Shown piece after piece: positions 1 through 3,518 of a stretch of DNA of 3,518 bases; position 1 is the stretch's first letter; every line of letters begins with the position of its first letter. The DNA lies in NCBI RefSeq assembly GCF_003334355.1, contig NZ_QOWP01000070.1; one strand, 5' to 3'. The DNA is from Escherichia coli. Its GTDB lineage: Bacteria > Pseudomonadota > Gammaproteobacteria > Enterobacterales > Enterobacteriaceae. Under the pieces are notes generated by a model. The model saw only the letters and a list, made by a program, of their open reading frames with translations. It ran no database searches and was not told the origin of the DNA. Made by a program: the position numbers and the translations under genes.

Positions 1-37
1 ATGCTTCCATCGGAAACGATGATCTGGCAGCCTGAGT

Positions 38-631
38 TCACAGATAAAACACTCTCCAGGAAACCCGGGGCGGTTCACGATGTTCAATAAAAGCATACCG
101 GACGACGGCATCGCCATAAATTTGTGCCTGGTGGACAATACGCGAGGCGCTAACCCTTGCGCGATCATAAATTTGTAGCAGGAGTTGATGGTCGGGCGTT
201 AAGCCTTGTGCGGCGACGATCATAGAATGTTGATCAATTAAGGCGTGACCAAATATTCTACATTGCCCGTAAACTAATGAGTCATGAATGGTGACACTGT
301 CACTTATATATGCACCCTGGCTGATTTCACTATTATCGATCCAGACATTATCCGTTGCGTGAACCTCTCCCCACAGCACGCTGGTGCCGGTGATACGCGT
401 ATTACCGGAAATCACCGTTCCGCCGAACGCAATAGCATTCTGGTCGTAAATCCAGCAATTTCCTTCCTGTGCTAACACCGTTTCGCGATCGATCCAGCCG
501 CCAGCGGTTCCTGCTATCACATCGTTAAAATCGCTAATGGCGATAATCTGCCGTAATAACACACTTTTTTTAGTGCCATCTTCCTGATAACTAAAGGCTC
601 GCTGTTCTTCACTTAGACGATATTTGCGCAT
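38..631 (-). CDS. ydcK: YdcK-like hexapeptide-repeat (left-handed beta-helix) acyl/acetyltransferase-family protein; 197-aa ORF, probably a frameshift-truncated copy of a longer gene (possible pseudogene)
   Basis: Minus-strand ORF from the track (ATG is the complement of 629-631, TGA the complement of 38-40). The translation is full of [LIV]-G-x-x-[STAV]-x type repeats ([46 protein letters not shown]). It is divergent from tehA, as ydcK is in E. coli. A second minus-strand frame stays open from about position 74 to the window edge and still looks repeat-like ([23 protein letters not shown]). Confidence 0.6.
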
Positions 632-754
632 AGCGTTTTCCCACAGGTGACTTACTATAACCGTAGCAAATTCTGCGGCTCTGGCTATGCTCGAGAAAAT
701 TCCATAAAATGCATTTCAAATATACTTTATAAATTAAACAAAATGAGTAAGAAG
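632..754. promoter_or_regulatory. Divergent intergenic region between ydcK and tehA; expected to hold both promoters. Only weak -10-like hexamers are visible (TATACT 721-726, TAAAAT 705-710) with no convincing -35 partner.
   Basis: 123-bp non-coding gap between two divergently oriented start codons. The box assignments are by eye only. Confidence 0.3.
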
Positions 755-1747
755 ATGCAGAGCGATAAAGTGCTCAATTTGCCGGCAGGCTACTTTGGTA
801 TTGTGTTGGGGACGATAGGGATGGGATTTGCCTGGCGCTATGCCAGCCAGGTTTGGCAGGTCAGCCACTGGTTAGGGGATGGGCTGGTGATTCTGGCGAT
901 GATCATCTGGGGATTATTAACTAGCGCATTTATTACCCGACTCATACGCTTTCCGCATAGCGTGCTGGCGGAAGTTCGCCATCCAGTGCTGAGCAGTTTT
1001 GTGAGTTTGTTTCCGGCAACGACGATGCTGGTGGCGATTGGTTTTGTTCCGTGGTTTCGCCCACTGGCGGTGTGCCTGTTCAGTTTTGGTGTCGTGGTTC
1101 AGTTGGCTTATGCCGCCTGGCAAACTGCGGGATTATGGCGCGGATCTCACCCTGAAGAAGCTACCACGCCTGGACTGTATCTGCCGACAGTTGCCAACAA
1201 CTTTATCAGCGCAATGGCCTGTGGTGCGTTGGGCTACACCGACGCCGGTCTGGTGTTTTTAGGCGCAGGCGTTTTCTCATGGCTAAGCCTTGAACCGGTG
1301 ATCTTGCAGCGTCTGCGCAGTTCGGGAGAATTACCCACGGCACTGCGGACATCACTCGGCATTCAGCTCGCTCCTGCGCTGGTGGCCTGTAGTGCCTGGC
1401 TGAGCGTCAACGGCGGCGAGGGTGACACGCTGGCGAAAATGCTTTTCGGTTATGGACTGCTGCAACTGCTGTTTATGCTACGTCTGATGCCATGGTATCT
1501 CTCCCAGCCATTTAATGCTTCATTCTGGAGTTTCTCGTTCGGCGTATCTGCACTGGCAACCACCGGTTTGCATCTGGGGAGTGGCAGCGATAATGGATTT
1601 TTCCATACGCTGGCGGTGCCGCTGTTTATCTTTACCAATTTTATTATTGCAATACTGCTCATCCGTACTTTTGCGCTTCTGATGCAGGGAAAATTGTTAG
1701 TCAGAACCGAGCGCGCCGTTTTAATGAAAGCAGAGGACAAAGAATGA
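755..1747 (+). CDS. tehA: Tellurite resistance protein TehA; TDT-family inner-membrane anion transporter, homologue of plant SLAC1 channels
   Basis: Long plus ORF (track 647..1747) encoding a strongly hydrophobic multi-pass membrane protein that I recognise as TehA. Start placed at ATG 755 ([19 protein letters not shown]...), which gives 330 aa and has a purine-rich GAGTAAGAAG just upstream. In-frame ATG 743 and GTG 647 are alternatives. The TGA stop at 1745-1747 overlaps the tehB ATG. Confidence 0.9.
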
Positions 1748-2337
1748 TCATTCGTGACGAAAACTATTTTACTGATAAATATGAATTAACCCGCACACAC
1801 TCTGAAGTACTGGAAGCGGTGAAAGTGGTTAAACCGGGTAAAACGCTGGATCTGGGCTGTGGCAATGGTCGTAACAGTCTTTACCTGGCAGCCAATGGTT
1901 ATGATGTTGACGCATGGGATAAAAATGCCATGAGTATCGCCAACGTCGAGCGCATTAAATCTATTGAAAATCTGGATAATTTACACACTCGGGTCGTTGA
2001 TCTGAATAACCTCACATTTGCTGGACAGTACGATTTTATTCTTTCGACTGTGGTGCTGATGTTCCTTGAGGCTAAAACCATCCCAGGGCTGATTGCCAAT
2101 ATGCAACGTTGCACGAAACCTGGCGGTTACAACCTGATTGTGGCGGCGATGGATAGCGCTGATTATCCATGTACCGTCGGCTTCCCGTTTGCCTTCAAAG
2201 AGAGAGAATTACGTCGATATTACGAAGGCTGGGAGATGGTGAAATACAATGAAGACGTCGGCGAGCTGCACCGCACCGACGCCAACGGTAATCGTATTAA
2301 ACTGCGTTTCGCCACGATGCTGGCACGTAAAAAATGA
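1744..2337 (+). CDS. tehB: Tellurite resistance protein TehB; class I SAM-dependent methyltransferase
   Basis: 197-aa ORF. SAM-binding motif I LDLGCGNG at 1846-1869 ([17 protein letters not shown]). The overall sequence matches what I know as E. coli TehB. Its start overlaps the tehA stop in ATGA (1744-1747), and AGAGGA lies about 10 nt upstream inside tehA. Confidence 0.95.
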
Positions 2338-2343
2338 CCCGGT

Positions 2344-2398
2344 AAGAACAAAGCGCGTGAAAATTCCCCACGCTGAGATGGTTTACTGTTCTTCTTTT
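2344..2398 (+). terminator. Weak candidate stem-loop with T-tract downstream of tehB
   Basis: AAGAACA (2344-2350) pairs with TGTTCTT (2387-2393), enclosing an inner GCGTG/CACGC stem (2355-2359 with 2369-2373), followed by CTTTT (2394-2398). The outer stem is AT-rich and the loop large, so this is not a canonical intrinsic terminator. Confidence 0.2.
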
Positions 2399-2497
2399 CG
2401 GTAAGCATATTTTTTATCGAAGGGATGTGAAATTAATCACAGTAGTCGAAGTTTTTTAGCAGCTTAACTAACTGAAATTTAACTACTGATGATTGAC

Positions 2498-2543
2498 TTA
2501 GCCCCTTTTTCGGCATTGACTATGTCGTCTGAAAAGGGGCTAA
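2498..2543. repeat. Perfect 12-bp inverted repeat (TTAGCCCCTTTT / AAAAGGGGCTAA) separated by 22 nt, in the tehB-ydcL spacer
   Basis: Arms 2498-2509 and 2532-2543 are exact reverse complements. The 7-mer ATTGACT occurs as a direct repeat at 2492-2498 and 2515-2521, the second copy inside the loop. An A6 run follows, not a T-run. Confidence 0.5.
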
Positions 2544-2594
2544 AAAATTTATTTTCACCAACACTTTTTTTGCCACAACACGAAGCGGCGCTTT

Positions 2595-2631
2595 TTGCTA
2601 TAACTTAAAAAGTAATATAATCATCTCAGGA
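2595..2631 (+). promoter_or_regulatory. Candidate ydcL promoter and ribosome-binding site: -35-like TTGCTA (2595-2600), consensus -10 TATAAT (2616-2621), Shine-Dalgarno AGGA (2628-2631) 8 nt before the ATG
   Basis: Exact TATAAT hexamer 19 nt upstream of the ydcL start, and AGGA at canonical spacing. The -35 match is weak and the spacer is only 15 bp, so the promoter call is tentative; the RBS is solid. Confidence 0.3.
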
Positions 2632-2639
2632 AACTATTC

Positions 2640-3308
2640 ATGCGTACCACATCATTTGCGAAAGTTGCAGCTTTATGCGGCTTATTGGCTCTGTCTGGTT
2701 GTGCCTCTAAAATCACCCAGCCAGATAAATATTCTGGTTTTTTAAACAATTACTCTGATTTAAAAGAAACAACCTCGGCTACAGGTAAACCTGTTTTACG
2801 TTGGGTAGACCCGAGTTTTGATCAAAGCAAATATGACAGCATCGTCTGGAACCCAATCACTTATTATCCGGTACCGAAACCGTCGACCCAGGTAGGGCAG
2901 AAAGTTCTGGATAAAATTTTGAACTATACCAACACCGAAATGAAAGAAGCGATAGCGCAGCGTAAACCACTGGTTACCACCGCTGGGCCGCGTAGTCTGA
3001 TTTTCCGTGGGGCCATTACCGGTGTAGATACCAGCAAAGAAGGGCTGCAATTCTATGAAGTGGTTCCTGTTGCATTAGTGGTTGCGGGGACGCAAATGGC
3101 TACAGGCCACCGTACCATGGATACTCGCCTCTATTTTGAAGGTGAGCTGATTGATGCAGCGACTAATAAACCGGTTATCAAAGTCGTTCGTCAGGGCGAA
3201 GGTAAAGACCTGAATAACGAAAGTACGCCAATGGCTTTCGAAAATATTAAACAAGTTATTGATGACATGGCGACCGATGCCACCATGTTTGACGTTAACA
3301 AAAAGTAG
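2640..3308 (+). CDS. ydcL: Lipoprotein YdcL (DUF3313-type, function unknown); probable outer-membrane lipoprotein
   Basis: 222-aa ORF. The N-terminus MRTTSFAKVAALCGLLALSGCAS is a signal peptide with lipobox L-S-G-C (2691-2702); Ala at +2 predicts Lol sorting to the outer membrane. Good SD, TAG stop at 3306-3308. Confidence 0.9.
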   Translation: MRTTSFAKVAALCGLLALSGCASKITQPDKYSGFLNNYSDLKETTSATGKPVLRWVDPSFDQSKYDSIVWNPITYYPVPKPSTQVGQKVLDKILNYTNTEMKEAIAQRKPLVTTAGPRSLIFRGAITGVDTSKEGLQFYEVVPVALVVAGTQMATGHRTMDTRLYFEGELIDAATNKPVIKVVRQGEGKDLNNESTPMAFENIKQVIDDMATDATMFDVNKK

Positions 3309-3316
3309 TTCCAGAC

Positions 3317-3341
3317 GCGCCATCGTTAGATGGCGCTTTTT
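3317..3341 (+). terminator. Rho-independent terminator downstream of ydcL
   Basis: Perfect 8-bp stem GCGCCATC (3317-3324) with GATGGCGC (3329-3336), 4-nt loop GTTA, then TTTTT (3337-3341). It starts 9 nt after the ydcL stop. Confidence 0.6.
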
Positions 3342-3518
3342 ATCCGGTGCGCCGTAAAACCCCATCCTTCAGGGCGGGGATATAAGGCGCGGTTTTCCAC
3401 CTGACCAGGTGTTTGCTGTTGTTCAATGTATTGGCGGATGACGGATATTGGCGCACCTCCGCAGCTACTGGCAAAATAGCCAGGACTCCACAAAACGCCT
3501 TTGTAGTAATACCTGACT
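3326..3518 (-). CDS. tnpA: IS200/IS605-family transposase TnpA (Y1 HUH tyrosine transposase), C-terminal fragment; gene continues beyond the 3' edge of the window
   Basis: Minus-strand frame open from the window edge to TAA (complement of 3326-3328). It translates to VRYYYKGVLWSPGYFASSCGGAPISVIRQYIEQQQTPGQVENRALYPRPEGWGFTAHRIKSAI*. The stretch LWSPGYFASSCGGAPISVIRQYIEQQQ matches the conserved C-terminal helix of IS200/IS605 TnpA that carries the catalytic tyrosine, as I recall it from IS608 TnpA (not an aligned comparison). The ORF track omits it because no start codon lies within the window. Confidence 0.6.
   Translation of the reverse strand, partial: VRYYYKGVLWSPGYFASSCGGAPISVIRQYIEQQQTPGQVENRALYPRPEGWGFTAHRIKSAI
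3344..3518 (-). mobile_element. End of an IS200/IS605-family insertion sequence (IS609-like), partial; exact junction with the chromosome uncertain, roughly 3309-3349
   Basis: Contains the TnpA C-terminus and an adjacent imperfect palindrome. A TTTAT pentanucleotide sits at 3339-3343; this family inserts 3' of short AT-rich target motifs. An IS609 copy downstream of ydcL is known in E. coli K-12. Confidence 0.4.
3349..3390. repeat. Imperfect palindrome: 19-nt arms (3349-3367 and 3372-3390) with a 4-nt loop; candidate subterminal hairpin of the IS200/IS605-family element
   Basis: Pairing the arms gives 14 Watson-Crick pairs plus one G-T, with mismatches spread through the stem. IS200/IS605 ends carry imperfect subterminal hairpins of this kind, recognised by TnpA. 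It overlaps the last codons of tnpA. Confidence 0.4.

Follow-up and report, generated by a model that had tools for sequence, protein, structure and literature searches.

In the present study, we analysed a 3518-bp stretch of Escherichia coli DNA (hereafter, the window) that ends shortly downstream of the gene ydcL. The last 175 nucleotides of the window (3344-3518) are almost certainly the left end of a chromosomal copy of IS609, an insertion sequence (IS) of the IS200/IS605 family, and the open reading frame (ORF) running off this edge on the minus strand represents the 3'-terminal part of tnpA, the gene for a single-strand DNA transposase of the Y1 HUH type, in a copy of the element that is decaying and probably immobile. 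The ORF nonetheless extends past the end of the gene; namely, the stop codon of tnpA has been lost in this copy, and the frame continues through the end of the element into the neighbouring host DNA.

When the minus strand of 3326-3517 was translated, 63 sense codons, VRYYYKGVLWSPGYFASSCGGAPISVIRQYIEQQQTPGQVENRALYPRPEGWGFTAHRIKSAI, were found to precede a TAA (complement of 3326-3328). Translation hence confirmed what had been proposed in an earlier reading of the same DNA (the sequence-only reading), that is, a frame open from the window edge to this TAA and containing the peptide quoted there. The ORF had also been described as unlisted; indeed, the whole frame is absent from the ORF list because it runs off the window edge, but its internal part starting with TTG is listed as 3326..3493(-) with 55 aa. 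In a search of Pfam, the 63-aa fragment matched PF01797 (Y1_Tnp) with E = 6.6e-8 at positions 91-121 of the 121 in the model, and NF033573 of NCBIfam was also matched with E = 1.2e-6 and 28.8 bits; a fragment of 31 positions is not expected to reach the cutoff of 55, which is set for whole proteins. The family match was restricted to residues 3-34 of the fragment, and the final ~25 codons, past residue 34, had no Pfam or NCBIfam coverage. The full ORF can be read in the locus of strain ATCC 8739, which is identical to the window over the final 600 nt; the conceptual ORF of this locus matched PF01797 over the entire model (1-121) with E = 2.6e-41 and scored 145.8 bits against NF033573, well over the cutoff of 55. 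Furthermore, full IS609 TnpA matched the structures of IS608, ISDra2, and Sulfolobus TnpA in PDB with E of 1e-17 to 1e-20. That the ORF includes the catalytic helix at the C-terminus of a Y1 transposase of the IS200/IS605 family is thus borne out by PF01797, NF033573, and the structure alignments.

The element itself was identified by comparison with the K-12 strain MG1655, in which the mobile element "insertion sequence:IS609" is annotated at 1503161-1504908 between ydcL and ydcO. The annotated element carries a minus-strand tnpA pseudogene, yncK (b4578), and a plus-strand gene for TnpB, insQ (b1432), and its first base is the counterpart of window 3344. The 175 nt of the left end (LE) in the window are identical at 174/175 positions to MG1655, so that the mobile-element end suspected beside ydcL is indeed that of the IS609 copy known from K-12. 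The same 175 nt are fully identical (175/175) in ATCC 8739 and PSS-12, and the Prokaryotic Genome Annotation Pipeline (PGAP) annotates a tnpA pseudogene and insQ in the matching complete genomes. The full length of IS609 is 1748 bp in MG1655, ATCC 8739, and the O157-type copy. With a 519-nt junction query (at least 80% covered), the junction between ydcL and the IS was detected in 3254 of 5426 complete E. coli genomes; the insertion is polymorphic, and ydcL is directly followed by ydcO in some strains.

Strains with no insertion also allowed us to define the boundary. The empty site, as represented by locus record L004, reads ...GCGCTTTTTAT/TATCGGTTTC..., i.e., TTTAT/TATCGG (the slash marks the junction), while the filled site reads ...GCGCTTTTTAT/CCGGTGCGCC...GGATGTCAA/TATCGGTTTC..., i.e., TTTAT/CCGG...GTCAA/TATCGG. 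The comparison of the two places the left boundary between 3343 and 3344 and the element on the 3' side of TTTAT, and there is no duplication of the target. The junction TTTAT/CCGGTG recurs at three other insertion sites, namely in a TetR-family gene near ytfB, in a DUF3251 gene near nrdR, and in the gltX-yfeD interval. At the ydcL site, IS609 sits in the 34-nt intergenic terminator region between ydcL and ydcO, and the target TTTAT is made of the T-tract of the ydcL terminator plus AT. The features of the plus strand around this junction are as follows.

3344..3518, plus strand: LE of IS609, first 175 nt; the MG1655 IS609 feature starts at window 3344, and the empty sites confirm the boundary.
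3340..3343, plus strand: TTAT, or TTTAT when the T before it is counted, the tetranucleotide in the flank for targeting and left cleavage, seen from the empty site L004 and the three other sites; the analogue of TTAC in IS608 (PMC3201880).
3349..3390, plus strand: subterminal imperfect palindrome of LE, a putative binding site of TnpA, suggested by folds and by conservation in relatives from Klebsiella and Pseudomonas.
3356..3359, plus strand: AAAA, candidate left guide on the 5' side of the hairpin foot, which would pair with TTAT by analogy with IS608.
3317..3341, plus strand: intrinsic terminator of ydcL in the host flank, found in a terminator scan, with an 8-bp stem (GCGCCATC/GATGGCGC), the loop GTTA, and a T-run.

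The stem of the ydcL terminator spans 3317-3336, with a DNA fold of -10.3 kcal/mol (z = -5.5), and is unchanged in the empty-site strain L004. On the other side of the element, the insertion point splits the stop codon of ydcO (L002 5906-5909; L004 2535-2537). ydcO ends with ...R-TAA in the empty strains, where the TAA makes use of the last T of TTTAT, and with ...R-Y-TGA in the filled strains, where the stop lies within the right end of the IS; the filled and empty alleles of ydcO hence differ by one C-terminal residue.

While the C-terminus of the transposase had been placed at the end of the ORF at 3326, the true end is 25 codons earlier, and the last five codons and the stop are outside the element. 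Intact IS609 TnpA (WP_000604943.1, in L003) has 143 aa and ends with ...RQYIEQQQTPG followed by TAG; in the window, position 3403 is G where the intact copy has A, and the stop is thereby lost. The read-through is composed of 20 codons (3344-3403) from the complement of LE and the five codons for IKSAI (3329-3343) from the flank, and the TAA ending the frame (3326-3328, minus strand) lies within the loop of the ydcL terminator. Indeed, at the other insertion sites, the tail changes past ...AHRI according to the flank. The minus strand is accordingly divided into the following features.

3404..3517, minus strand: final 38 codons of genuine tnpA coding sequence, for residues 106-143 of TnpA (143 aa; VRYYYKGVLWSPGYFASSCGGAPISVIRQYIEQQQTPG), with the GGAP loop and helix alpha-D; based on Pfam Y1_Tnp (91-121/121) and the structure alignment.
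3401..3403, minus strand: site of the original tnpA stop, which is TAG in intact IS609 and reads CAG (Gln) in the window; based on the comparison with L003 and on the outgroups.
3326..3400, minus strand: read-through tail, namely VENRALYPRPEGWGFTAHR (LE complement) and then IKSAI and TAA (3326-3343) from the flank, with no family coverage.
3428..3430, minus strand: codon TAC of the predicted catalytic tyrosine, Tyr135 of IS609 TnpA, aligned with Y127 of IS608.
3416-3418, minus strand: codon of the metal-coordinating Gln139, aligned with Q131 of IS608.

In the outgroups, the coding sequence also stops at the ancestral position: after ...QDRPD in Pseudomonas (58% identity), ...QQTPI in Klebsiella (77%), and ...QQTPE in Bifidobacterium (46%). 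Given that the intact copy and the three outgroups all stop there, the stop is ancestral, and CAG is a derived stop-loss. In a tblastn search against plasmids, the tail appeared to be conserved as protein in Pseudomonas, Klebsiella, and Bifidobacterium; this possibility was rejected, as the DNA has a stop in all three. The similarity of the tail in the relatives from Pseudomonas and Klebsiella is instead explained by conservation of the LE palindrome as DNA and not by coding. The former tnpA stop is also overlapped by a small palindrome (CACCTGACCAGGTG, 3398-3411), past which the plus strand is rich in T. This palindrome had a terminator-like score in the scan, and read-through into the IS from the side of ydcL could be weakened by it.

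The 38 genuine codons include the residue that is expected to carry out the cleavage of DNA. The catalytic residue of IS608 TnpA is Tyr127 on helix alpha-D (PMC3597680, PMC5934647), and the numbering in our alignment was checked by reproducing Y7, H64, H66, F112, Q131, and Q132 of IS608 as named in PMC5934647. The sequence-only reading had taken the tyrosine of the "YF" motif for the nucleophile; in the alignment with 2a6m, nonetheless, the tyrosine of "GYF" (3476-3478) pairs with Cys111 of IS608, and it is the tyrosine of RQYIEQQ that pairs with Y127. Since Tyr135 is aligned with the documented Y127, the nucleophile is predicted to be Tyr135 (3428-3430). The HUH motif, which had been expected upstream in the protein, is present as PDHVHLL in the same frame in the orthologous loci identical over the last 600 nt; it lies beyond the window, and its H69-V-H71 in IS609 TnpA aligns with H64 and H66 of IS608.

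Beyond the window edge, tnpA was found to be broken in all the nine ydcL-site copies examined (L001, L002, L005, and L007-L012, including those of ATCC 8739, MG1655, EC6, PSS-12, and Y5), and all nine share the stop-loss and the changes at 3364 and 3385. In ATCC 8739, TGA replaces Leu96 at 27 nt past the window edge, and the frame then continues through HUH to ATG; the same nonsense codon is present in MG1655, EC6, and PSS-12, and EC6 has a 19-bp duplication in addition. The other lesions are a 5-bp deletion (L007 and L009), a 1-bp deletion (L010 and L011), and an insertion of an IS3-family element (Y5). Closure of the frame within a few codons of the edge had been named in the sequence-only reading as a sign against a transposase when no HUH motif followed. 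The frame is actually closed by TGA nine codons upstream of the edge in the K-12-type strains, but HUH follows in the same frame, which indicates decay of the gene and does not argue against its identity as a transposase. An uninterrupted ORF with the normal C-terminus of the family was not found at the ydcL site, given that the stop is already lost at 3401-3403 in the window itself. To judge from sequence, tnpA in the window is therefore a member of the IS200/IS605 family by descent and a pseudogene in its state.

The tnpB gene supposed to lie beyond the window is insQ, which encodes 402 aa and is located 7 nt from the start of tnpA in the divergent orientation in all the orthologous loci. 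It is an intact 402-codon ORF in eight aligned ydcL-site copies, with pairwise ratios of nonsynonymous to synonymous polymorphism (pN/pS) of roughly 0.2-0.6 (small counts), and is also annotated in strain Y5. Selection for intact insQ/TnpB might explain why the ydcL-site copy, with tnpA decaying time and again, persists in about 60% of E. coli. On plasmid NZ_CP058684.1 (L015 1485-2693), furthermore, a homologue of insQ/tnpB with ~95% DNA identity has no annotated tnpA adjoining it. When the full element in L001 was scanned against Rfam by E-value, only sub-threshold matches were obtained at the 3' end of insQ (HgcC, 22.2 bits vs 50; RAGATH-18, 25.4 vs 44.9). The HgcC match (L001 7986-8102, plus strand) overlaps the 3' end of insQ and the right end of the element, the place expected for an omegaRNA, and is not evidence for one. 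In the window as a whole, nothing was found in an Rfam scan at the gathering thresholds, and a promoter scan of 3200-3518 gave no sigma-70-like sites.

The left end is also altered outside the coding sequence. Its palindrome consists of an outer stem (GCGCC/GGCGC) and an inner hairpin, CCCCATCC-TTCA-GGGCGGGG (3360-3379), and in the orthologous loci the right end has a matching hairpin, CCACGTCC-TTCA-GGGCGTGG, followed by AGGATGTCAA up to the boundary. The change of G to A at 3364 is present in every ydcL-site copy examined and in those only, and it breaks a G-C pair of the inner stem; the folding energy of this hairpin is -3.9 kcal/mol (z -0.9) in the window, as opposed to -7.5 kcal/mol (z -3.0) in the copies with G. 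The LE palindrome (...GCGCC..TATATCCCCGCCCTGAA...) is also conserved as DNA in L016 (2610-2680) and L017 (2625-2690), while TnpA of Pseudomonas and Klebsiella is only 58-77% identical. Taken together, the loss of the stop, the mutation breaking the LE stem, and the further tnpA lesions in nine copies suggest that IS609 at the ydcL site is a decaying and probably immobile relic.

The stop-loss allele is nevertheless not confined to ydcL. Of two exact 45-mers, the one with CAG was present in 4036 E. coli records and the one with TAG in 1258, and the CAG allele is found at at least three insertion sites, one of the copies (L014) having an otherwise uninterrupted ORF of 180 codons that runs into the flank. 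The two other sites are represented by L013 (306-794) and L014 (306-794), and the ORF in L014 is flagged by PGAP as "missing C-terminus". The presence of CAG at several sites implies past transposition of elements bearing the stop-loss, with the transposase being their own extended TnpA or one acting in trans. Alternatively to simple decay, stop-loss tnpA might be a working variant, with a 20-residue extension templated by the complement of the LE hairpin plus residues specific to the flank of each site; we regard this as possible but rather doubtful.

Several points weigh against our interpretation of the ydcL-site copy as a decaying IS609. As elements carrying CAG have moved, the stop-loss allele is no proof of inactivity; the effect of the 3364 change on the binding of TnpA is predicted from folding energies only; the name IS609 depends on the annotations of MG1655 and PGAP; and the source record ends at 3518, so that orthologous genomes are the basis for attributing the HUH motif, insQ, and the internal TGA to this copy. 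Could tnpA then be intact and active here, with 3326-3518 as its real C-terminus and IS609 at ydcL as an autonomous element? The frame within the window indeed has no internal stop, the contig ends at 3518, and the stop-loss copy in L014 has its uninterrupted ORF elsewhere. We nonetheless consider this very unlikely, because tnpA is a pseudogene in 9/9 of the ydcL-site copies, the four most similar of which share the TGA 27 nt past the edge, because the stop at 3326 belongs to the flank whereas the outgroups stop 25 codons earlier, and because the LE hairpin is mutated. Also, IS609 accounted for 0/758 new insertions in mutation-accumulation lines of K-12 (PMC5009759).

Even less probable are two explanations that dispense with an insertion sequence or with a gene altogether. 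One is that the ORF belongs to no IS but to a domesticated TnpA relative, namely a REP-associated tyrosine transposase (RAYT). RAYTs have the HUH/Y1 fold in common with TnpA, the full conceptual protein gives a weak match to them (NCBIfam REP_Tyr_transpos, E = 1.9e-5), and the gene here adjoins a GC-rich palindrome in an intergenic region. The score against NF047646 is, however, only 24.6 bits for a cutoff of 80, as opposed to 145.8 for a cutoff of 55 with the IS200/IS605 model. The element is moreover paired with tnpB, is bounded by defined ends, is present in some strains and absent from others with precise empty sites, and recurs at further loci and on plasmids. Both these cutoffs and the comparison with empty sites refute an identity as RAYT, to which we give next to no credence. 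Much the same holds for a chance ORF that would never have been coding and simply happens to span intergenic DNA and the ydcL terminator. The last 25 codons with no family match cross a palindrome and a terminator, and an overlapping 44-aa ORF is listed in another frame, but in the initial 34 residues the last 31 positions of PF01797 are recognised (E = 6.6e-8), and in identical loci these residues form one stretch with a complete Y1_Tnp domain. A chance origin, which we find scarcely credible for the ORF as a whole, is thus refuted for 3404-3517, while it is effectively true for 3326-3403.

The movement of an element such as IS609 may be considered in terms of "peel and paste" single-strand transposition, which is established for IS608 and would apply to IS609 by inference. 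IS608 TnpA binds subterminal imperfect palindromes and cuts on the 3' side of two tetranucleotides, namely TTAC (19 nt from the left hairpin, on its 5' side) and TCAA (10 nt from the right hairpin, on its 3' side) (PMC3201880); its guides are located 5' of the hairpin feet, with AAAG as the left guide GL pairing with the left cleavage site CL (TTAC) and GAAT as the right guide GR (PMC5934647). By analogy, a dimer of IS609 TnpA would bind the subterminal hairpins of the top strand, and the 4-nt guide AAAA at the hairpin foot would base-pair with the cleavage/target sequence TTAT; Tyr135 on helix alpha-D would then attack the DNA, and IS609 would be excised as a single-stranded circle and re-inserted 3' of another TTAT. 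The change of C to T in the site (TTAC vs TTAT) would be matched by that of G to A in the guide (AAAG vs AAAA). Furthermore, work on TnpB (PMC8612924, PMC10055086) suggests that, together with a right-end omegaRNA, InsQ would recognise TTTAT as the transposon-associated motif (TAM) plus the right flank TATCGGTTTC, the target being TATCGGTTTCTGTCAGCG. The vacated ydcL-ydcO site recreates exactly TTTAT plus the right-flank sequence; as TAM and target are reconstituted in this way, InsQ could cut the vacated sites and favour retention of the element.

Compared with IS609 in MG1655, the window has the same ydcL/IS609/ydcO locus, left boundary, stop-loss, and LE hairpin mutation, and differs by one single-nucleotide polymorphism (SNP) at 3517 and by the interruption of ydcK by an IS3-family element, which is lacking in MG1655. 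The intact O157-type IS609 (in the TetR-family gene near ytfB) is the same in length (1748 bp), TTTAT target, and ends, but five differences were found across the 175 nt; it has A at 3403 and hence the TAG stop, G at 3364 and a perfect inner stem, and C at 3385 and a longer outer stem, and its LE fold is -18.6 kcal/mol vs -11.1 kcal/mol here. IS608 and IS605 of Helicobacter pylori resemble IS609 in the HUH motif and the tyrosine on helix alpha-D, in GGAP...QYIExQQ, in subterminal hairpins at both ends, in the right end TCAA at 10 nt from the hairpin foot, and in a target tetranucleotide 5' of LE with a 4-nt guide (putative in IS609) and no target duplication. In contrast, the target is TTAT in IS609 and TTAC in IS608, the guide AAAA (putative) and AAAG, and the distance from the cleavage site to the hairpin foot 16 and 19 nt, respectively, and the ~20-aa C-terminal tail of IS608 TnpA is lacking in IS609 TnpA. 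Also, tnpA and tnpB are divergent in IS609, with LE at the 3' end of tnpA, but co-directional in IS608; those of IS605 are divergent. RAYT, while similar to IS609 TnpA in the HUH/Y1 fold and in GC-rich palindromes nearby, is distinguished by the tnpB, the defined ends, and the empty sites of the IS609 element.

The presence of IS609 beside ydcL is already known from the annotations of the K-12 reference and, by PGAP, of thousands of genomes. Our results thus have little weight as a discovery, and their value lies in the correct annotation: 175 nt of repeat DNA, true transposase in 38/63 codons, the tyrosine of QYIE as the predicted catalytic one, and tnpA as a pseudogene. The stop-loss allele at multiple sites, the repeated loss of tnpA beside intact tnpB, and the TAM-restoring empty site are modest population-genetic illustrations of decay in the IS200/IS605 family rather than new biology.

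As the last 175 nt are repeat DNA, it is also understandable why the sequence ends where it does. The window is the whole of QOWP01000070.1, a 3518-bp contig in the draft assembly GCA_003334355.1, and contains ydcK (truncated), tehA, tehB, and ydcL in an arrangement matching E. coli. The closest orthologous genome is that of E. coli PSS-12, which is 100% identical to window 78-3518. The final SNP separating the copy in the window from the O157-type IS609 copy is at 3441, and 3441 + 77 = 3518; at the other end, window 1-77 consists of 77 nt from the terminus of an IS3-family element, with an exact match in L005. Both contig ends would therefore fit a break of a k = 77 de Bruijn graph at 77 nt into repeats, with the short-read assembly broken within the IS609 repeat at 3518, and the source genome is implied to hold at least one further copy of IS609. 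The top BLAST matches of the whole window appeared to be full-length but were in reality composites, the 77-nt piece in Y5 deriving from the IS3-family element inside IS609 tnpA. Interruption by the IS3-family element leaves ydcK as a 197-aa ORF at 38-631 on the minus strand, compared with 326 aa for the full protein. An exact-match search with the truncated YdcK protein led back to this 3518-bp contig alone. The reverse complement of the IS3-family terminus at window 1-77, which is probably IS629/IS1203-like, begins with TGAACCGCCCCGGG.

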